Virus record (IMG/VR): IMGVR_UViG_2648501797_000006
Span: 1-24,757 of that record
Reading direction: 5' to 3' (one strand)
Length of the DNA: 24,757 nucleotides
Source: a virus
Taxonomy: Duplodnaviria; Heunggongvirae; Uroviricota; Caudoviricetes
The notes beneath the pieces are model-generated. The model searched no databases. It worked only from the letters and a program-made list of their open reading frames with translations, and was not told the DNA's origin. The position numbers and the translations under genes were made by a program. Shown in pieces: positions 3,579-13,412 of this stretch; the first letter of the stretch is position 1; every line of letters starts with the position of its first letter.

Positions 3579-3737
3579 CATAATTACCTCTCAAATTTAA
3601 ATTGGGCAGAGATGCCAGCATCCAGGCTCGCGCCTGGACGATTGTCTGATGATGAAAAGTGCAGTTTAATCTGTGGCTGGATTATCTGGATGCACTGGAG
3701 CTGGTTGATACCTCCAGTGCGCCAGATATTGAATGGC

Positions 3738-4148
3738 CTACTCCTCCGGCAGTTCAGGCCAGATGACATCCGGTGCGGTGCTGGTATCTGTTGCCGTCAC
3801 AGCGTCGATATAATCCAGCACAACGTTAAGTCGGGTAGTTTCTTCTTGCGTCAGTTTGCGCCCGGCCTGCAGCTTTAACTGAATCACGCTGATATTGACC
3901 ATTGCTGCGTCTATCAGCGACTGTTTTTTTTGTTCAGCGTCAGCTACCAGTTCATCATGAGAACGTTCCGGAGGGAGCGGCGCAGTAAATACCCCGTCTG
4001 AATACCCCCAGCCGATTCCGGGATGCTCACTGATATCAGAAATATCAATGAGCTGCTGATTATCCGGCACTGTGAATTCAGCCTCGCCATCCCAGACAAT
4101 GACATTCACAACCATCCCATTTTCAATAACTGCATATGACGCATTCAT
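3738..4148 (-). CDS. Tail fibre assembly protein (Tfa/gpU-like)
   Basis: C-terminus ...LDYIDAVTATDTSTAPDVIWPELPEE is the conserved Tfa C-terminal motif. Start ATG (complement 4146..4148) follows GAGGAG and overlaps the upstream stop as TAATG. Confidence 0.7.
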   Translation of the reverse strand: MNASYAVIENGMVVNVIVWDGEAEFTVPDNQQLIDISDISEHPGIGWGYSDGVFTAPLPPERSHDELVADAEQKKQSLIDAAMVNISVIQLKLQAGRKLTQEETTRLNVVLDYIDAVTATDTSTAPDVIWPELPEE

Positions 4149-4624
4149 TATGCAAACTCCTCGATAATACAAATCCCAGCAGCACCTTTCCCGCCTGTCA
4201 TACTGGTTCCGCTATAACCGGCATCGTATGCGCCACCGCCACCTGAACCATATACCTTACCACTAACACCACCGCCAGCGCCTGCGCGTCCACCGCCCCC
4301 CCAGTACGATGTTCCGCCTTCACCGCTGACGCCGATATTTCCGGACTGACCGTCGCCTCCATTTCCACCAATGATGTTGATACCGCCAGTACTTGGCACA
4401 CCGCCGTTATCGTCTTCGGTCAGCTCGCTGATGACCGAAAAATCGAACTGATAAATCAGCTCATGACGATTCAGATCCAGCAGCGTGCCGCCGTCATAAG
4501 TAATCGGGTTACCGCACGCTTCCGGGTTCCAGCCCAGAATGGCCTTAAAGAGCATCTGCCGGATATCGTCCACCACATCATACGAGGCAAACTGACCGCG
4601 CTCATCACGCCCGTTCCAGCTCTT
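4148..4624 (-). pseudogene. Tail fibre C-terminal (receptor-binding, Gly-rich) fragment lacking its N-terminal portion
   Basis: Frame is open from 4624 to stop 4148..4150 with only an alternative GTG at 4576; the Gly-rich C-terminus is directly followed by tfa. Upstream is the terminase gene, not the rest of a fibre gene. Confidence 0.6.
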
Positions 4625-6104
4625 TCATCGGGTCGGACATGTTGGTGTAGTTCTGAATGATGGTGATGGGATTCAGGTCTTCATCAGCAAGGTCATGTGA
4701 CAGCCCGGTCGCCCCGAAGGGGTCGATGGGTGACTCGCTGACCGGGCTGATTTTGTTCGCTGCTTTGGCCTCTTCGAGGATGTAGCGATAATCCACCTCT
4801 GCACCATCGGTAACGGTCAGGACGCCCATTTCCACCCATTTCTGAAAGCGTTCGGCTGTCCGGCGATCTTCATTTTTCTCGACGCTGTACACCGTGTCAT
4901 ACGGTACCCAGAAACGCGGGGCCACACTGTAGTAATGCGTTTTACCGTCAATCTCGCGGGTATAAAGTCGCGCCATGCTGTTCATATCCAGCTTACGCGC
5001 CAGGTCAAAGGCCAGAATGCACGGCTGCCCCTCGAACTGCTCAAGGGTCAGTGATTTATCCTCGCAGCTCTGCCAGCTCACCAGGTTGAAATACGCCGAA
5101 CGCGCCGACACCCAGATATTGAGGTGTTTTGTTTTAAAGACGTTTGCCAGACGGGCGTTATTTTTCGCACGCTGCTGCTGACTTAACAAAAATTCGCGAT
5201 AAACCGACACGCCAATATTTGGATTGGCTTTTTCCAGCACCTGCGGGTCGGTCCAGTCGTCACCTTCATCAACGGTATAGATGATCCCGAACAGTTCATC
5301 GTTGGGCACCGAGCCGTTGAGCATCTCGATGACTTCCCGCCGCTTGTCGTAGCACGGCCCCTCAATGTTGTACCCGGCAGTAGTAATGGCCCACATCAGT
5401 GGCTGACGTCGCGCCCCCATCCCGGTAAGCATCGTGGTGTAAAGCGCATCGGTGGCGTGCTCGTGATATTCATCCACCACCGCACAGTGGGGTGATGATC
5501 CATCACCGGGGTTACCGATCAGCGGTTCAAACCGCGCGCCATCCTCCGGACGGTTCATGTTTGAGGCGTTAACCTCAATCCCGAACGCTTCCGTCAGCAT
5601 GGGCGTGCGTTTACACATCAGTCGCGCCGGGCGAAAGACTTCCCACGCCTGTTTCTCTGTCGTGGCACCGGAATACACTTCCGCGCCAAACTCGTTATCA
5701 CAGGCAAAACAATACAGGGCGACACCGGCAGAGATTGCCGATTTGCCGTTCTTACGGGGGATTTCGGTATACACCTCCCGGAAGCGGCGCAGCCGGGAGC
5801 CTTTATTGACCCAGCCAAACGCACAGCAGATCACAAAGAGCTGCCACGGCTCCAGCGTGATGGGCATCCTCTTGAATGCCCACTCACCCTTGGTGTGCGG
5901 CAACAGCTGAATAAATTTGGCGGCTCGTTCAGCCAGGTCCTTGTCGAAGCGGTAACGAAACGACTTACTTTTTTCCGCCATCAGGTCATCAAGATGGCGC
6001 TGGCAGGCCTGAATCACAAACTGGCAGGCCACAATCTTTCCGCGAAAGACATCCCGGGCATACTGATTGGCAGCATTTACGTTGGGGTAAGATTTCCGGC
6101 TCAT
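4605..6104 (-). CDS. Terminase large subunit (Terminase_1-like, 499 aa)
   Basis: 499-aa frame; its ATG overlaps the TerS stop as ATGA (6101..6104). Placed after HNH and TerS as in HK97-type packaging modules. Confidence 0.85.
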
Positions 6105-6595
6105 GATTCGATGATTTTCAGAAACGGGTTAGTAGCTTTCTTCTGCCCCGCCAGGCCAATCAGACGCTGGCGGCTGCTGGGGTCGAGTCCGAGCATTGCC
6201 CCCGTGCTGCTCATCTCGGACTCCTGTTCTTTTTTGGCGGTCAGCTCAGGATTTTTGACCATACCGCCCATTGCACCGGTGATGGTGTTGCCCTGTCTGG
6301 CAATATTTTTCACGGCACGTCGCCAGAACTCATAGGCCACACACCACCGCTCAAGCACCGCGAGGTCAGTCACGCACAGCAGGCCCTGACCGCAAAGTTC
6401 TTTAGTTGTCAATTGCCACATGATCGTGGCGAGAGGGAGATCTTCTTCAGCGAACCACTCCGGTGGCTCAACACCTTTGATGGGCGTAAAAACAGGTTCA
6501 TCTTTATTCAGGGCTCGCTTGCCGGGGTTTCCGGCCAGCGCCTTGCGCGCCGTTGGCTTGGGGCGACGCCCGGAACGCCCCGCCGTTCCAGCCAT
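6101..6595 (-). CDS. Terminase small subunit (P27-like)
   Basis: Basic N-terminus [27 protein letters not shown]...; ATG at complement 6593..6595 with GGAG 8 nt upstream (the track used an upstream GTG). Directly upstream of TerL. Confidence 0.7.
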
Positions 6596-6720
6596 ATGCG
6601 GCACTCCTGGTTAAATTTCATTTTTCGCGGGTATAAAAAAACGATGGGGCGGGCAGTCCTGAAGACGTCAGGGTACAGAGATTTGACCCGCCCCTCCCCT
6701 CTGGCAGTGGGAACTGGTTC

Positions 6721-7071
6721 TTACTTCAGCCGTTCACGGGCCGTCTTCGCCTTATGACACGGCCAGCACAAACTCTGCAGATTACTGTCGACATCAGTGC
6801 CGCCATGCGATTTAGGGATGATGTGGTCAACGGTCTTCGCCTCACGCACCACACCAGCACGCAGACATAACTGACACAGGCCTTTGTCACGCTTCAGGAC
6901 ACGCGCGCGGATACTTTCCCACTTCGAACCGTAGCCGCGCTGATGACGGGATTGTCCAGGTTTGTATTGCTTCCAGCCTTCGCTTTTGTGGCTTTCGCAG
7001 TAGCCTGAAGGGTCCGTGGTTGTAGAGCGGCAGCCGCGAACACGGCAGGCTTTTGGGGTTCGTGGGGGCAT
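6721..7071 (-). CDS. HNH endonuclease (packaging-associated)
   Basis: Cys/His pattern C..C...HIIPKSHGGTDVDSNLQSLCWPCH typical of phage HNH proteins next to terminase genes; GGAG 6 nt before the ATG. Confidence 0.8.
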   Translation of the reverse strand: MPPRTPKACRVRGCRSTTTDPSGYCESHKSEGWKQYKPGQSRHQRGYGSKWESIRARVLKRDKGLCQLCLRAGVVREAKTVDHIIPKSHGGTDVDSNLQSLCWPCHKAKTARERLK

Positions 7072-7595: not shown

Positions 7596-7889
7596 ATGAA
7601 AAAAATGTTGTTTTCTGCCGCTCTGGCAATGCTTATTACAGGATGTGCTCAACAGACGTTTACTGTTGGAAACAAACCGACAGCAGTAACACCAAAGGAA
7701 ACCATCACCCATCATTTCTTCGTTTCGGGAATTGGACAGGAGAAAACTGTTGATGCAGCCAAAATTTGTGGCGGCGCAGAAAATGTTGTTAAAACAGAAA
7801 CCCAGCAAACATTCGTAAATGGATTGCTCGGTTTTATTACCTTAGGCATTTATACTCCGCTGGAAGCGCGGGTGTATTGCTCACAATAA
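7596..7889 (+). CDS. bor: Bor lipoprotein (lambda bor homologue)
   Basis: MKKMLFSAALAMLITGCAQQTFTV...ICGGAENVVKTETQQTFVNGLLGFITLGIYTPLEARVYCSQ is near-identical to lambda Bor as recalled; lipobox LITGC; AGGA upstream of ATG 7596. Confidence 0.9.
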   Translation: MKKMLFSAALAMLITGCAQQTFTVGNKPTAVTPKETITHHFFVSGIGQEKTVDAAKICGGAENVVKTETQQTFVNGLLGFITLGIYTPLEARVYCSQ

Positions 7890-7920: not shown

Positions 7921-8382
7921 CTATCTGCACTGCTCATTAATATACTTCTGGGTTCCTTCCAGTTGTTTTTGCATAGTGATCAGCCTCTCTCTGAGAGTGA
8001 AATAATCCCGTTCAGCGGTGTCTGCCAGTCGGGGGGAGGCTGCATTATCCATGCCGGAGGCGGTGGTGGCTTCACGCACTGACTGACAGACTGCTTTGAT
8101 GTGCAACCGACGACGACCAGCGGCGACATCATCACGCAGAGCATCATTTTCAGCTTTCGCATCAGCTAACTCCTTCGTGTATTTTGCATCGAGCGCAGCA
8201 ACATCACGTTGGCGCACCTGCATGTCAGTAATTGTCGAGTTCGCCAGCTTCAGTTCTCTGGCATTTTTGTCGCGCTGGGCTTTGTAGGTAATGGCGTTAT
8301 CACGGTAATGATTAACCGCCCATGACAGACAGACGATGATGCAGATAACCAGAGCGGAGATAATCGCGGTTAATCTGTTCAT
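7921..8382 (-). CDS. Rz: Rz i-spanin
   Basis: [48 protein letters not shown]... near-identical to lambda Rz; start overlaps the R stop as ATGA. Confidence 0.95.
7980..8162 (-). CDS. Rz1: Rz1 o-spanin, nested in the +1 frame of Rz
   Basis: [55 protein letters not shown]... matches lambda Rz1 with lipobox and Pro-rich tract. Confidence 0.9.
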
Positions 8383-8855
8383 ACCTCAATCTCTCTGACC
8401 GTTCCGCCCGCTTCTTTGAATTTTGCAATCAGGCTGTCAGCCTTATGCTCGAACTGACCATAACCAGCGCCCGGCAGTGAAGCCCAGATATTGCTGCAAC
8501 GGTCGATTGCCTGACGAATATTGCCGCGGTCAATCATCGGTAAAGCGCCACGCTCTTTAATCTGCTGCAGAGCTACAGCGTCCTGGCTTTCTGGAGAAAA
8601 ATCTTTCAGGCCAAGCTGTTTACGGTAAGCATCCCACCAGCGTGAAAGAAGCTGGTAACGTCCGGCGGCTGTTGATTTGAGTTTGGGGTTTAGCGTGACA
8701 AGTTTGCGAGGGTGATCGGAGTAATCAGTGAACAGTTCACCACCAACAATAACATCATAACCGTGGTTACGTGTCGGTTGTCGCCCGTTATCCGTTCCTT
8801 CTGACCAGGCCACCATATCAAGGAAAGCTTTACGCTGAGGATTTAGTTCCTGCAT
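8379..8855 (-). CDS. R: Endolysin R (lambda R-type lytic transglycosylase)
   Basis: ...[77 protein letters not shown]... near-identical to lambda R. Confidence 0.95.
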
Positions 8856-8858
8856 AAA

Positions 8859-9185
8859 TTACTCCTTCGAGCTACCAAACTTGTTACCGATTACTCTCAT
8901 TGCCGCACCACGAATAGCATCGACCCCGATCAGCCCCACCCCACCACCAATAGCAACAGAAAGTGATTTAGGCCATCCGACATACTCAAGCGCGGATGCA
9001 AAGGTCAGTGTCAGAGCGCCACAGAGCAAAATCTCGAGCGTTTTTCGCTTCCAGCCGCCACCGCCACCAAAATAGGCAATACGTAAACCAGCCATAACGA
9101 TCGACATAATTACTGCGCCCAGTGGTGTGTCTCCACGCCACCAGCTCTGTACCAACTCCAGCCAGGTATTTGGGTTATGAGGCAT
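8859..9185 (-). CDS. Putative holin (three predicted TM segments)
   Basis: Immediately upstream of R; likely start at complement 9183..9185 (MPHNPNTW...) after GAGGTGAG; three hydrophobic segments. Not lambda S by sequence. Confidence 0.55.
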   Translation of the reverse strand: MPHNPNTWLELVQSWWRGDTPLGAVIMSIVMAGLRIAYFGGGGGWKRKTLEILLCGALTLTFASALEYVGWPKSLSVAIGGGVGLIGVDAIRGAAMRVIGNKFGSSKE

Positions 9186-9228
9186 TTCGTCATCTCTCAC
9201 CTCGCGATATTTGCGGGTGCTGTGTTGG

Positions 9229-9254
9229 AAATAAAAAGGCCACGCAACGTGGCC
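9229..9254 (-). terminator. Rho-independent terminator between the methyltransferase and holin genes
   Basis: Perfect stem GGCCACG-caa-CGTGGCC (9238..9254) followed on the minus strand by TTTTTATTT (complement of 9229..9237). Confidence 0.6.
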
Positions 9255-9261
9255 ACCAGAA

Positions 9262-10314
9262 TTATTTCCCCACCAGTTCACTTACCTCTTTCACCGTCTG
9301 ATTAAACCGCTCTGACTCAAGTTCAACACCTAACGCCCGACGCCCCAGCGCCATTGCTGCTTTTATTGTGGAACCGGATCCCATAAAGAAATCAGCAACC
9401 AGATCACCAGGTCGACTACTGGCATTGATTATTTGCCGGAGCATATCCGCCGGTTTCTCGCACGGATGTTTACCCGGGTAGAACTGAACGGGCTTATGCG
9501 TCCAGACATCGGTATAAGGCACAGAGACTGATACGGAGAAATAGCGCCGGAGAGATTTAAACTCATCCAGCAATTCAGAATATTTGCGATTCAGTGAATC
9601 ATAAGATGCCACCAGCTGGTGGTGTGGTTGTTCCAGTTGTTGTTCCTGAAACTTCTCTGCCGCTATACGGGAAAACAGTGCCTGTAACTTCCGATAGTCA
9701 GCCTCATTCGGCAACTGCCACTGACTGGCACCAAACCAGTGGGAAACCATATTTTTCTTATCTGTGGCTTCGGCAATTTGTTTTGCCGTTATACCCAGTT
9801 CGGCACGAGCATCCCTGAAATACGATATCAGCGGTGCCATTATGTGCTGTTTGAGTTCCCTTTCTTTTGCCGCATAGTCGTCACTTTTGCCGCGATATGG
9901 CCCCTGGTAATGTTCAGCAAACAGAACGCGCTCTGTGGCAGGAAAATATGCGCGCAGACTTTCTTTATTACACCCATTCCAACGTCCGGACGGCTTCGCC
10001 CAGATGATATGGTTAAGCACGTTGAAACGTTCACGCATCATGATCTCAATATCAGATGCCAGGCGATGCCCACAGAACAGGTAAAGGCTTCCGGCAGGTT
10101 TTAACACCCGCCAGAACTGGGCCAGACAGTGGTCCAGCCACTTAAGGTAATCTTCGTCCCCTTTCCACTGATTGTCCCAACCGTTAGGTTTCACTTTGAA
10201 GTAAGGCGGATCGGTAACAATCAGGTCAATGGAATCATCAGGCAGGGACTGAATAAAATGCAGGCAATCAGCGTTGATTAAATCAACACTGTTTATTTTT
10301 ACAGTATTTTTCAT
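9262..10314 (-). CDS. Orphan DNA methyltransferase (DPPY motif, beta-class N6-adenine or N4-cytosine)
   Basis: IVTDPPYF near the N-terminus and SAM-binding FFMGSGST near the C-terminus (motif IV before motif I). No partner endonuclease recognised nearby. Confidence 0.85.
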   Translation of the reverse strand: MKNTVKINSVDLINADCLHFIQSLPDDSIDLIVTDPPYFKVKPNGWDNQWKGDEDYLKWLDHCLAQFWRVLKPAGSLYLFCGHRLASDIEIMMRERFNVLNHIIWAKPSGRWNGCNKESLRAYFPATERVLFAEHYQGPYRGKSDDYAAKERELKQHIMAPLISYFRDARAELGITAKQIAEATDKKNMVSHWFGASQWQLPNEADYRKLQALFSRIAAEKFQEQQLEQPHHQLVASYDSLNRKYSELLDEFKSLRRYFSVSVSVPYTDVWTHKPVQFYPGKHPCEKPADMLRQIINASSRPGDLVADFFMGSGSTIKAAMALGRRALGVELESERFNQTVKEVSELVGK

Positions 10315-10464
10315 GGATCAGTAAGCGTAACTCTGGTAGGCTCACTCTGCTTTTGCGCTAAAGCAGTGGGCCGTGGTTCGCTTGTGACCAGTAAGCATGA
10401 GCGAATGGCTGGCAGGTGCTACCAACACCCACCAGCCGCCCATTTTCACAGCAGGAAACCGCCA

Positions 10465-10668
10465 TTACTGGCAGCGTCTGAATTTATTCCCGTACCCGCC
10501 GTTATCCTTCGCCAGACCCGCCAGAACTAACTGAGTCAGTATTAACTGGCACCGGGCTTCGCTTACTCCGGTAGTTCTCGTCATCATGCGTGGCGTTACC
10601 CACTTGTCAGCAGGTAAGAAATGAAGGACTGCGGCGGCGGTTTCTGTCATATCTTGCTGTTTTAGCAT
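10465..10668 (-). CDS. Possible small helix-turn-helix protein (67 aa); speculative
   Basis: Internal ATG at complement 10666..10668 preceded by AGGGA; RMMTRTTGVSEARCQLILTQLVLAGL resembles a winged-helix recognition region. No family recalled. Confidence 0.25.
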   Translation of the reverse strand: MLKQQDMTETAAAVLHFLPADKWVTPRMMTRTTGVSEARCQLILTQLVLAGLAKDNGGYGNKFRRCQ

Positions 10669-10790
10669 GTCTTTTTCCCTTCTGGTTAACATGACATACC
10701 AATAACTCTTGTCTAAAAAGCCAGCAAGATAAAAAGTCAGTATTCACGACCACCAGCGTGTTTACTGTGCTGCACCAAGTTTACAGGTAC

Positions 10791-10822
10791 AAAAAAACCG
10801 CTCAGCGGCGGGTTTAAGTTGT
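10791..10822 (-). terminator. Weak candidate bidirectional terminator
   Basis: aaaaaaaCCGCtcaGCGGcgggttt: short GC stem flanked by an A-run on one side and a T-run on the other (seven Ts on the minus strand). Confidence 0.3.
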
Positions 10823-10987
10823 GTGGCGAAGTAACCACTCTTAACACAGTAATCTAGAAAATGCGGACCGCGTTAGTGATTTTTATCTGTTTTTCCATTA
10901 TTTTTTTGCCACACAGCTTAAAACGAAAAATAAAGCAGGCGTTGCCAAACCTCACGGTGACAGTTGGCTTAGAATGAGGACATATTT

Positions 10988-12007
10988 TTGGATAAGTTTG
11001 ATGAGATTCATGTAGATATTGAATCTGAGCAGCAAGCCTTCGATTTGCTTGAAAGCTATCTTGATGGTTATGGTTTACCTGACAGTTTAAGTTTCAACGG
11101 ATGGCCAAACCTTACCATCAGATTAACCGGTGAAAAATTCAACAGATCGCTAACACCTTCAGTTATGAAGGGATTTGTTGAAATGCAAGCTCAAATCAAC
11201 AAATCATATGCCCTTGCCAAGTACGGTGTCCCTGACGTCCGCAAACTGACCAAAGAAGAACTTGATGCCCTAGAAATAGAAGTTACGGTAGAACAGGGTT
11301 CTTCAATAGTAGAAATCAACATTGATGGCTTTTTAACCAAACTCACACAGGAACTTGTTGGTAAAATGAACGCAACTGAGATCATGTTTACTGTTCTCGG
11401 CGCAGCAGTCATCTGGGGCGGAGTAACAGTATTTAAACGGTTCTTGGACAACCGTAAAGATATTCGCCTTGCAGAAATTGCTAAGGATGGAGAGAAAGAA
11501 CATCTCCGGACTATGCAGATCATGAGCGAGCAAGAAACTAAACGCCTGCGGGTTATTTCAGAAATGATTGCGGAAAAACCACTTCTCGATAACATGGACC
11601 GTATGTCGTATGACGCTAAAACCCAAATGGTCAAATCCTTTGTGCGTTCAGATAACGCTCAAATTGATGGCGTTACTATTGATTCTGAAATGGCGAAAGA
11701 GTTGGTTACGAATGCTCGTAGACGTTCATCAGAAATGAGGATTGATGGTATTTACCGAATTGAAGAAGTCAATAATACTGACCCAGAGAGTTTCAAAGTT
11801 AAGGTCCGACGCGTAGATACCGACCAACGTCTAACCTGCGTAGTTCAGGATGTTTTCCTTGATGAATCCGGAAACAAAGAAGCATTGCAGCGAGCTGAGT
11901 GGGAAAGAAAGCCTGTACATTTGAGCATTAACGCAAAACACGTCGATGGTGACATTAAGTCAGCAGTAATTCTCTATGTTCGAGATGTGGAACAAAAGCC
12001 CGAGTAA
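10988..12007 (+). CDS. Hypothetical membrane-anchored protein, 339 aa, no family recognised (candidate moron)
   Basis: Only start is TTG at 10988, with GAGGA 7 nt upstream; no in-frame ATG for about 60 codons although the N-terminus reads protein-like. One central hydrophobic segment (IMFTVLGAAVIWGGVTVF) in a charged, helix-rich sequence. Visibly AT-rich versus flanks (not computed). Converges on Q, stops 14 bp apart. Confidence 0.6.
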   Translation: MDKFDEIHVDIESEQQAFDLLESYLDGYGLPDSLSFNGWPNLTIRLTGEKFNRSLTPSVMKGFVEMQAQINKSYALAKYGVPDVRKLTKEELDALEIEVTVEQGSSIVEINIDGFLTKLTQELVGKMNATEIMFTVLGAAVIWGGVTVFKRFLDNRKDIRLAEIAKDGEKEHLRTMQIMSEQETKRLRVISEMIAEKPLLDNMDRMSYDAKTQMVKSFVRSDNAQIDGVTIDSEMAKELVTNARRRSSEMRIDGIYRIEEVNNTDPESFKVKVRRVDTDQRLTCVVQDVFLDESGNKEALQRAEWERKPVHLSINAKHVDGDIKSAVILYVRDVEQKPE

Positions 12008-12021
12008 TCGGGCTTCAATAA

Positions 12022-12414
12022 TCAATCTTTAATTTCGGGGTCCATCTCTAGACTAATTTCCAGCATCGATAGGCAGCCATCAATAAACCCCTCAGCCATC
12101 TGTATCTCAATGCGTATTAGTTTCTCATCCTTTTTACGAGCCTTGGCGAGCTTTCTTTTAGAGATACCGTATAGGTAATGGGCAACAAGAAGCGAATGTT
12201 CGTCCGGCCTTTTTTGCCTTAGACGAGCAAGACAACCTTCAATAATTAATGCATCACTATCTGAACATGCCTGACGTGTTTTGCTTGTATAGGGAAGAAG
12301 CCCTTTAAACCCAGCAGCTATAGGAGAATAGTCTACTCCTGAACTATCACTCGCCGCCCATGCTCCCCAACGATCCAGAACCATTTGAATATCACGCATC
12401 AACTTTCTCCACAA
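12022..12414 (-). CDS. Late-gene antiterminator Q (phage 82/21-type Q family)
   Basis: MRDIQMVLDRWGAWAA...IAAGFKGLL... matches the Q antiterminator family as recalled; true start may be the MRDIQ methionine 5 codons in. Confidence 0.8.
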   Translation of the reverse strand: MWRKLMRDIQMVLDRWGAWAASDSSGVDYSPIAAGFKGLLPYTSKTRQACSDSDALIIEGCLARLRQKRPDEHSLLVAHYLYGISKRKLAKARKKDEKLIRIEIQMAEGFIDGCLSMLEISLEMDPEIKD

Positions 12415-12416
12415 AA

Positions 12417-13412
12417 TCAGGCCAGCACGCCAATTGCCAGCGCACGATCGATAAAACGAAATATCAGCTCCAACTGAGAGCCATACTTTTCTTCAAATAC
12501 CACGGTATCCGCATGCAGCTCGTCGTGATGCTTTCTGCACAAAGGCAACACAAAAAGGTCATGCGCTTTTGTTCCCATTCCACCCTGACCGTAACCTATC
12601 AGGTGGTGGGGATCATCAGCGGGCTTTCCACAACATGCACACGGCTGTGTCTTAACCCAGCGCGTGTACTTTTCATTAACCCAGCGGCGACGTTTTGGGC
12701 GTAACATAAAAGACTCCGGCGACTCCGGATCCACTTTCAGCGCCAGCACCTTTTTCGCCTTATCCTGGATGATGCTGGTGGCAGGAACCGAAGGCACAAG
12801 GTCACTTTCCCGGGTGACAGACGGCACAACAGGCTTCGGTAATCTCAGTGCCTTACGGGCTGCACTTTCCGGTAAGGCATCCGCCAGGTCATTACGAATC
12901 AGCCACCAGCACAGTTCCGGCATTGTCACAACGTGACTGTCATCAAAACCGAGATCCCGACGCACAACAGACAACACCCAGCGGGCACAGTTATCCGTTG
13001 CCATTGATTCCAGCCGTTCCGTGAACTGATCGCGCAGCTGGTTATCGCAGTGCCAGCACAGACGGATTGCACCCGGAGCGTGTCGCATTGTGGTCATGTT
13101 CTCGCTGTGCCAGTCGGAATGAGGCCACTGGCAGCCTTTTTCACGAAGTAACCAGCTTTCAAGACATTCCACGCCACCAGCACGACGGATCACTGCCTCA
13201 TTGCGGAACACGGCCCGAACGGTAGGATCATCCGCCAGCGGTTGTGATGCCGCCGGAACGGCACCACTGGCGAAAGATGAATAACGTTCCGGCTCAGGCT
13301 CCAGCAGGACACGCCCCTGCATAAACAGGGGCATCAGCTCTGAACCTGGTCTGAACAATACGATCCCCATACGCGGGGCAATTTCAGGGGTCAGTAGTGC
13401 TCTCACGGTCAC
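12417..13412 (-). CDS. HNH-motif protein of the nin region (DUF968-like)
   Basis: C-terminal CACCGKPADDPHHLIGYGQGGMGTKAHDLFVLPLCRKHHDELH motif; GTG start abutting the upstream gene. Family name from memory only. Confidence 0.55.
   Translation of the reverse strand: MTVRALLTPEIAPRMGIVLFRPGSELMPLFMQGRVLLEPEPERYSSFASGAVPAASQPLADDPTVRAVFRNEAVIRRAGGVECLESWLLREKGCQWPHSDWHSENMTTMRHAPGAIRLCWHCDNQLRDQFTERLESMATDNCARWVLSVVRRDLGFDDSHVVTMPELCWWLIRNDLADALPESAARKALRLPKPVVPSVTRESDLVPSVPATSIIQDKAKKVLALKVDPESPESFMLRPKRRRWVNEKYTRWVKTQPCACCGKPADDPHHLIGYGQGGMGTKAHDLFVLPLCRKHHDELHADTVVFEEKYGSQLELIFRFIDRALAIGVLA

Follow-up and report, generated by a model that had tools for sequence, protein, structure and literature searches.

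We analyzed a DNA methyltransferase gene and its surroundings in a 24,757-nucleotide (nt) stretch of viral DNA (Caudoviricetes; IMG/VR record IMGVR_UViG_2648501797_000006, positions 1 to 24,757), called the window throughout; coordinates refer to it, and features lie on the minus strand unless the plus strand is stated. The region is 99.9% identical to a prophage situated beside tRNA-Thr/proA in several Escherichia coli strains, and gene annotation was taken from the RefSeq record of the identical prophage of E. coli PCN061. The prophage is lambdoid, is integrated at tRNA-Thr, and carries the locus as a late-gene cassette. The RefSeq order, on one strand except where said, runs from integrase by way of repressor/Cro to RusA, KilA-N, DUF968, and the antiterminator Q. 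After Q come an opposite-strand hypothetical gene, a hypothetical 67-amino-acid (aa) gene, the methyltransferase, holin, endolysin, and Rz, followed by iss/bor (opposite strand), an HNH gene, terminase, and head and contractile-tail genes. The order immediately around the methylase is Q, an insert, a terminator resembling tR' of phage lambda, a small open reading frame (ORF), a conserved leader, the methylase, a second terminator, and the holin.

The methyltransferase (350 aa; 9262–10314) is a beta-class N6-adenine DNA methyltransferase of the M.EcoGII family. An earlier reading of the window, made from the letters without database searches (the sequence-only reading), had proposed a DPPY methyltransferase here, and this proposal is borne out: The ORF matches PF01555 (N6_N4_Mtase) end to end (residues 29–341, E 1e-42) and has the beta-class order of motifs, with an N-terminal DPPY (residues 35–38; 10201–10212), a central target-recognition domain, and a C-terminal FxGxG. 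The latter, FFMGSGST (residues 309–316; 9367–9390), is the S-adenosylmethionine (SAM)-binding motif; truncation of this motif had been raised as a possible objection, and both it and DPPY are intact. Over the full length, 281 of 349 residues (81%) are identical to M.EcoGII and 308 of 348 (89%) to Anc291, and neither alignment has a gap in the target-recognition region (residues 160–237). The two reference sequences were extracted by machine from the PMC11551740 supplement and may contain a few misread residues. The gene is also 98%–99% identical to genes of phages SfV (orf48), cdtI, mEp460, and Ayreon, and shares 80%–85% identity with its counterparts in many Stx2 phages, phiP27, and 1720a-02. 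Because of this 81%–89% identity to M.EcoGII and Anc291, and of the relatives in SfV, cdtI, mEp460, and Ayreon, the enzyme is an ordinary member of a characterized family. Gene and leader are present together in 1264 of 5426 complete E. coli genomes (23%), with up to eight copies in one genome, so roughly one such genome in four has an M.EcoGII relative.

M.EcoGII is a 349-aa, prophage-borne, beta-class enzyme that modifies adenine non-specifically, is unexpressed in the lysogen, and is harmful once expressed; it and M.EcoGI come from prophages of E. coli O104:H4 C227-11, and M.EcoGII was placed in a "very large family" in an apparently "well-defined prophage," a close relative being noted in phage 1720a-02 (PMC5778455). 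M.EcoGII, Anc291, and SUPREM are active without a sequence motif, and all reconstructed ancestors methylated DNA and RNA (PMC11551740); RNA is also methylated by M.EcoGII (PMC5778455, PMC11551740). Homologs in O111 Shiga toxin-producing E. coli are listed as "nonspecific" orphans with no signal in lysogen methylomes (PMC6602927), and silence and/or toxicity has been reported for M.EcoGI, M.EcoGII, and their homologs (PMC5778455, PMC12707154, PMC6602927). The window enzyme is like M.EcoGII/M.EcoGI, Anc291, and SUPREM in its beta-class motif order, its length (349–350 aa), its location in a prophage, and its orphan status, and in sequence comparison it lies phylogenetically between enzymes experimentally proven to be non-specific. 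Classification of the target by homology, a check proposed in the sequence-only reading, assigns it to the non-specific adenine class, and the degree of identity strongly suggests that it methylates A in any context, without a motif.

It is very unlikely that the gene encodes a site-specific orphan enzyme expressed from the prophage, whether for host epigenetics or for protection against one cognate system only. Some orphan methyltransferases of prophages do affect their hosts, and 19% of positions differ from M.EcoGII, some of them in the target-recognition domain; however, the two non-specific enzymes are the ones to which it is 81% and 89% identical, and homologs showed neither a motif nor activity in lysogen methylomes (PMC6602927). 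Moreover, a consensus scan found no promoter-like site ahead of the gene, which is flanked by terminators and has no Shine–Dalgarno sequence. The suggestion that the prophage enzyme alters host methylation also fares poorly: Such enzymes are silent in the lysogen and toxic when expressed, and host methylation there is unlikely to be shaped by the window enzyme.

The absence of a partner endonuclease, asserted in the sequence-only reading, was upheld. No restriction endonuclease was found in the RefSeq annotation of the identical prophage or by PADLOC, which classes the methyltransferase as MTase_II without a partner; none was found at related loci either, and the family has been described as orphan (PMC6602927). 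We rejected two nearby genes as restriction partners. The HNH gene (6721–7071; 116 aa) is of the terminase-associated type and stands beside a P27-family small terminase, and the DUF968/HNHc_6 protein (12417–13412), upstream of Q, is a common lambdoid nin-region gene. We also weighed whether the methylase might be the surviving half of a decayed restriction–modification system, its position being accidental. PADLOC does group it with Type II methyltransferases, and the HNH protein (6721–7071) has weak matches to restriction endonucleases (E about 1e-5), but this gene lies beyond the lysis genes and iss, where its P27-type small terminase neighbor marks it as the usual packaging HNH. Across more than 240 loci in many phage lineages, the methylase is invariably accompanied by Q, the leader, and either lysis genes or tRNA-stx, and never by an endonuclease, so a decayed system is extremely improbable.

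The gap between the small ORF and the methylase ATG had been treated as spacer; it proved to be the most conserved and most informative noncoding part of the locus. Approximately 150 nt are conserved here from E. coli to N15 and PY54, with stems that change in sequence, and they contain a leader RNA of ~130 nt (10315–10446) for which two folds can be drawn. In state A, helix P0 (UGGGC/GCCCA; 10442–10438/10371–10367) closes a three-way junction with the long hairpin P1 (10437–10424/10420–10407) and hairpin P2 (10405–10397/10385–10377), followed by hairpins P3 (10366–10360/10353–10347) and P4 (~10345–10340/10326–10321). State B consists of P1ext (10443–10438/10402–10397), Palt (10372–10366 with 10345–10339), and Pseq (10389–10381/10325–10316). 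In Pseq, the P2 loop and 3' strand, G(G/A)UCAC..., pair with ...CUGAUC, at nt –4 to –13 before the AUG.

Covariation was assessed in a MAFFT alignment of 71 distinct sequences that was not structure-fitted, with all helices defined by hand. State A had 82% of cells paired, versus 31%–44% with slid partners, and 21 of 38 pairs were compensatory; for state B as a whole, the figures were 87% and 23 of 38, support no weaker than that for state A. Within state B, P1ext (UGGGCG with the P2 5' strand) had 94% of cells paired and a compensatory A-U in one sequence, and a single pair of Palt (GGCCCA with UGAGCC) occurred as G-C in 30 sequences, A-U in 19, G-U in 17, and A.C in one. Pseq had 87% of cells paired and compensatory changes in six of eight pairs. 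The covariation scores of state A (0.198 vs. 0.121 in shuffles) and of Pseq were each reached by none of 500 shuffles, controls that overstate significance because the aligned relatives share ancestry; more weight attaches to the slid-partner controls and to the multiple independent variants of the stems. Each switching strand has two conserved partners. The leader thus has two mutually exclusive, covariation-supported folds, one of which pairs nt –4 to –13.

A covariance model built on the state A fold (R1) gave exactly one match at each locus, and the match invariably abutted the first ATG of the methylase operon; in the model-fitted alignment (77 sequences), 85% of cells were paired and 30 of 38 pairs were compensatory. 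R1 found the leader from E. coli to Vibrio, namely, in Escherichia, Proteus/Morganella, the N15-like YDC107_1, Aeromonas, and the Vibrio phages VHML and Val-yong3. BLAST with the leader returned 60 phage records; the matches listed lie directly upstream of the methylase, a statement from which we set aside one partial match (35% of the query, phiSTEC1575-Stx2k). Rfam gave no match to the leader, either at gathering thresholds on the whole window or at E ≤ 10 on 9100–11100. An 8-sequence RNAalifold consensus was partly wrong owing to misaligned stems and was replaced by the hand-defined helices and 71 sequences. A leader-encoded peptide was rejected, as no frame is open across the family and the stems vary by compensatory substitution. 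In 18 representative sequences, states A and B lie within ~0–10 kcal/mol of each other, with B usually the more stable; the window RNA with longer flanks folds into state A.

For the methylase, a usable Shine–Dalgarno sequence is absent: 16 of the 71 sequences, the window included, have none at all, and 49 have only an AAGG 12 nt upstream, inside P4. The start codon itself lies in an A-rich single strand. Inside the coding sequence, codons 4–9 form a further hairpin, P5 (ACUGU-N8-ACAGU; 10288–10305), under evident synonymous constraint, with Thr4 always ACU, Asn8 AAC, and Ser9 AGU; Asn3 varies, and locus L193 has the compensatory form ACUGG/CCAGU.

The pre-AUG helix, mutually exclusive folds, and restriction to one gene family recall riboswitches and bistable 5' untranslated regions, in which one of two conserved folds likewise occludes the ribosome-binding region and a junction contains highly conserved unpaired nucleotides. 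As computed, the leader combines a conserved, covarying fold with an alternative expression-platform fold; it differs from riboswitches in that it matches no Rfam family and that the window gene has no Shine–Dalgarno sequence to sequester. We tentatively put the ~130-nt leader (10315–10446) forward as an undescribed class of bistable RNA for M.EcoGII-type operons, a proposal that may well prove wrong. Its default would be the locked fold, and the signal for the ON state might be SAM or S-adenosylhomocysteine, the methylase acting autogenously, or the winged-helix protein predicted for the small ORF, binding to RNA.

Other functions for the leader, as an antisense RNA template (as in type I toxin–antitoxin systems), as a protein-binding DNA operator, or as a merely stabilizing 5' structure, seem unlikely to us. 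Counts of G.U against A.C were tried as a means of fixing the transcribed strand, with a mixed outcome: P1 (68 G.U vs. 14 A.C), P4, and Palt favor the sense strand, whereas P2 has 131 C.A and 8 G.U, and on the opposite strand C.A becomes G.U. The C.A oppositions of P2, however, fall exactly on the bases that pair with an invariant GGG in state B, and given this placement we attribute them to the dual pairing of that strand. The P3 loop is palindromic (UGCGCA or GUGCAC), a symmetry that would suit the target of a dimeric DNA-binding protein, but the long-range helix to the pre-AUG nucleotides covaries, which a DNA operator would not need. An antisense promoter is plausible within codons 5–12 of Proteus-type sequences, where the antisense strand reads TTGACA-16-TATTTT; we rejected it, as this motif is not retained in the E. 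coli type and the scan found no promoter.

One further feature of the leader sequence was noted. The pre-ATG (C)UGAUC (10316–10321) contains a Dam site (GATC), and its partner in the locked (OFF) fold is the P2 loop (10384–10389), which reads GAUCA in most relatives and GGUCA in the window. Dam methylation of DNA matters for Mu mom.

Between methylase and lysis genes lies an intrinsic terminator (9229–9254). The sequence-only reading had described a perfect 7-bp GC hairpin with a T-run between the methylase stop and the holin, and this hairpin is indeed present and conserved: The stem GGCCACG/CGTGGCC (7 pairs, six of them G-C) encloses the 3-nt loop TTG and is followed by TTTTTATTT, also given as UUUUUAUUU. 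With a computed energy of –12.5 kcal/mol, it begins 7 nt past the stop codon and ends 43 nt ahead of the holin ATG at 9185, and the G+C-rich hairpin is directly followed by a U-run on the transcribed strand. Terminator-like sites as such are not rare in this region (nine found vs. 4.3 ± 2.0 in shuffles). The 9229–9254 site is retained in 78 of 80 near-identical viral contigs, with variants in the loop only, and the equivalent sites are annotated as terminators in the records of Ayreon and N15. A hairpin and T-run with unrelated stems occur just past the stop codon in N15, Serratia OS31, and PY54-like phages (examples of unrelated post-stop sites: AGCCCCGC, AACCCGCC, GCCCTGGC, and AAGGCACC); overall, 163 of 238 loci have such a structure directly after the gene.

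Upstream, the gene order is that of lambdoid late control. Q (12022–12402; PF06530 Phage_antitermQ, E 2e-52; antiterminator Q family protein in RefSeq) is 70% identical to Q of 1720a-02. The segment at 10790–10890 is homologous to the DNA directly after Q in 1720a-02 and phiP27, and its homolog in Stx2a_1447 sits ahead of the small ORF. The terminator scan placed in this segment a tR'-like hairpin, GCCGC-TGA-GCGGT plus TTTTTTT (10809–10797), and these ~100 nt are likely a pR'–leader–tR' unit, the promoter position being a projection from homology. Downstream lies the lysis cassette (7921–9185; RefSeq), made up of holin S (8859–9185; PF05106), endolysin (8379–8855), Rz (7921–8382), and Rz1 (7980–8162). 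The locus begins with Q, followed by a promoter-proximal terminator and, further along that strand, S-R-Rz. It resembles lambda late control (Q, pR', tR') in its Q gene, a short leader ending in a strong terminator, a cargo with its own terminator, and S-R-Rz; the same late site carries stx2 in Stx phages. Classical "moron" cassettes, in contrast, are expressed in the lysogen from a promoter of their own, whereas the window cargo seems to be promoterless and Q-dependent.

This arrangement changes the meaning of the post-methylase terminator. The sequence-only reading had taken the methylase to be insulated from the lysis cassette; the terminator is real, but the separation is not, as the methylase itself belongs to the late transcription unit. 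It is not set apart from lysis because it is downstream of Q and the tR'-like terminator and physically tied to the lysis genes. From the order of elements, we infer that the terminators gate methylase and lysis genes alike against RNA polymerase unmodified by Q rather than separating one from the other.

The tie to lysis genes extends across phages of Escherichia, Serratia, Yersinia, Aeromonas, and Vibrio. Ayreon, phiNP, Hafnia yong2, Morganella IME1369_02, Serratia OS31, N15, and PY54 all have Q or a late promoter, the small ORF, ~150–270 nt, the methylase, and lysis genes, and in VHML, Val-yong3, and phiARM81ld, the methylase stands directly before the holin. In phiP27, 1720a-02, and Stx2a_1447, the cassette is followed by tRNA genes and stx2, and these copies (L083–L085, ~3650–6700) have no terminator after the methylase. 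Many Stx2 phages carry this cassette (small ORF, leader, and methylase) immediately between Q on one side and the ileZ/argN/argO tRNA genes and stx2AB on the other. With the cassette between Q and stx2, the late transcript of the toxin therefore passes through the leader and the methylase gene.

We consider it probable that the window encodes a late-expressed, Q-dependent, non-specific anti-restriction methylase, held in check by terminators together with an RNA switch acting on translation. In the lysogen, constitutive late-promoter transcripts would stop at tR' and the methylase would not be made, and stray read-through RNA would take the sequestered state B, whose energy equals the minimum or lies a few kcal/mol from it; the proposed double lock, the tR' stop and state B, would explain why the toxic enzyme is silent in lysogens. 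Upon induction, Q-modified RNA polymerase would pass both tR' and the post-methylase terminator, placing methylase and lysis genes on one late transcript, and the leader would shift to the three-way junction of state A, freeing the initiation region. Candidate triggers of this shift are the winged-helix protein, the methylase, SAM, and folding kinetics. The adenines of replicating phage DNA would then be methylated shortly before packaging, and progeny would be protected from many adenine-sensitive restriction systems in the next host. The pre-holin terminator would additionally keep unmodified polymerase off the lysis genes.

An anti-restriction role was proposed by Murray et al. (PMC5778455) and in a 2025 EcoSal review, which paired M.EcoGII with Mu Mom (PMC12707154). 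A non-specific late enzyme might serve another end, such as a packaging or replication mark, action against methylation-independent defenses, RNA modification, or lysis timing. Linkage to the lysis genes is tight and ancient, to the point that the phiO18P gene lies between holin and endolysin; RNA is a substrate of M.EcoGII (PMC5778455, PMC11551740); and Dmt of phage P1 is needed for packaging (PMC12707154). M.EcoGII-modified DNA is, however, refractory to many restriction enzymes, and both the authors and reviews favor protection (PMC5778455, PMC12707154), and we regard these other late roles as decidedly unlikely.

Several points weigh against the gated anti-restriction methylase that we favor. 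The consensus scan gave no convincing site for the pR' promoter, and the Q-dependence of the methylase is deduced from gene order. Non-specificity is argued from the 81%–89% identity. In about 75 of 238 relatives, the Stx-phage type among them, no terminator directly follows the gene; therefore, the post-methylase terminator is not essential to the cassette. To these are added the C.A oppositions of P2 and the shared ancestry of the aligned leaders, both described above.

Bacteriophage Mu com-mom is a close parallel for the gating: a toxic adenine-modifying enzyme, silent in the lysogen and made late, whose translation is controlled by an mRNA structure that hides the initiation region. This likeness has also been drawn by reviews (PMC12707154), and distant relatives of the window cassette carry a Com-like zinc-finger ORF (phrog_6417). 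An occluding structure is predicted in the window too (Pseq, nt –4 to –13), but no zinc-finger Com lies upstream of or overlapping the methylase. The systems differ further in that Mom is not a SAM methyltransferase, that the window has, in place of Com, a small ORF whose predicted winged helix lacks a Cys4 motif, and that a single inhibitory stem in Mu stands against a ~130-nt two-state RNA with a three-way junction.

The Com-like ORF was observed in Aeromonas, Vibrio, and some other relatives, between leader and methylase (phrog_6417, "translational regulator"; L092 2862–3077; L255 2362–2478; upstream of the methylase in L203, L196, and L197), and is followed by a hairpin covering a GGAG. 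By analogy with Mu com-mom, this pairing suggests a second translational lock. The idea that the Com-like protein replaces the leader in distant relatives was rejected, as the leader precedes the Com-like ORF and both coexist. In the P2-like Aeromonas phage phiO18P (L254 1917–4013), the order is zinc-finger protein, holin, methylase, muramidase, and the methylase, between holin and endolysin, has no leader RNA.

The enzyme is of an ordinary, already characterized kind; the leader, apparently undescribed, was unexpected. M.EcoGII itself is a widely used reagent, in Fiber-seq-type chromatin footprinting, MadID, and RNA N6-methyladenosine tools. Publications on M.EcoGII and Anc291 treat the enzyme, and its late-operon place, flanking terminators, and leader RNA are not described in the open-access papers searched; no description of the leader was found in that literature, from which its absence more widely is not provable. 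The authors of the M.EcoGII paper had raised the question of how a toxic phage enzyme is kept silent (PMC5778455), and the architecture here (terminators on both sides, no Shine–Dalgarno sequence, and an OFF fold on the initiation region) offers a testable answer. A switch that responded to the methylase or to some small molecule would constitute a new class of regulatory RNA and might also be a useful tool for tight control of toxic genes.

The small ORF upstream of the leader (10465–10668; 67 aa; AAGGG Shine–Dalgarno; hypothetical in RefSeq) had been offered as a speculative helix-turn-helix gene, and it turned out to be real and conserved. Of 242 related loci, 219 have a homolog in the same orientation, its end lying 125–325 nt ahead of the methylase start; N15 gp51 and PY54 ORF59 are among these homologs. 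The ORF matches phrog_331, and NCBI names its phiP27-type homologs "TrmB family transcriptional regulator." An AlphaFold2 model (m13960ee0b136; 27 sequences; predicted local distance difference test score 87) has three helices and a beta-hairpin wing, and the product is thus predicted to be a minimal, stand-alone winged helix. Since some 15 loci have the leader without it, we rejected the notion that the leader requires the small ORF, which is often present as an accessory but is not a constant component of the cassette.

The nearest solved folds to the model, all with weak E-values, were Z-alpha of ADAR1 (template modeling score 0.84), ribosomal eS25, and NsrR/IclR/TrmBL2-type domains. The SelB mRNA-binding domain was also among the structural matches, the best of which bind RNA or nucleic-acid structures. 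A Z-alpha-like function was kept as a lead only, given the weak E-value, despite a good fold match, and the apparent lack of conservation of the Asn, Tyr, and Trp that contact Z-DNA. The matches to RNA binders, alongside an alternating purine–pyrimidine palindrome in the P3 loop of many lineages, are suggestive only.

Finally, we noted several features in the vicinity of the cassette. Apart from noise, the Rfam scans described above gave only one match, weak but full length, to the Salmonella small RNA family STnc130 (10687–10823, plus strand; E 0.54; 25 bits, where the gathering score is 55). The tR'-like hairpin falls within the span of this match and can also be read as a hairpin from the plus strand. 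Equating the pR'–tR' short RNA or the leader with the prophage small RNAs AgvB and AsxR of enterohemorrhagic E. coli was rejected, as these are convergent RNAs downstream of moron genes. A plus-strand ORF of 339 aa (10988–12007; phrog_6191), without a Pfam, NCBIfam, or PADLOC match, is wedged in after the Q stop codon, ahead of the presumed pR'/tR' segment, and Stx2a_1447 has two different opposite-strand genes at the corresponding site. The site between Q and pR'/tR' appears to be a hot spot for the insertion of cargo genes whose expression runs counter to the late transcript. Right after Rz/Rz1, also on the plus strand, is the iss/bor serum-resistance lipoprotein gene (7596–7889), a typical lambdoid moron.

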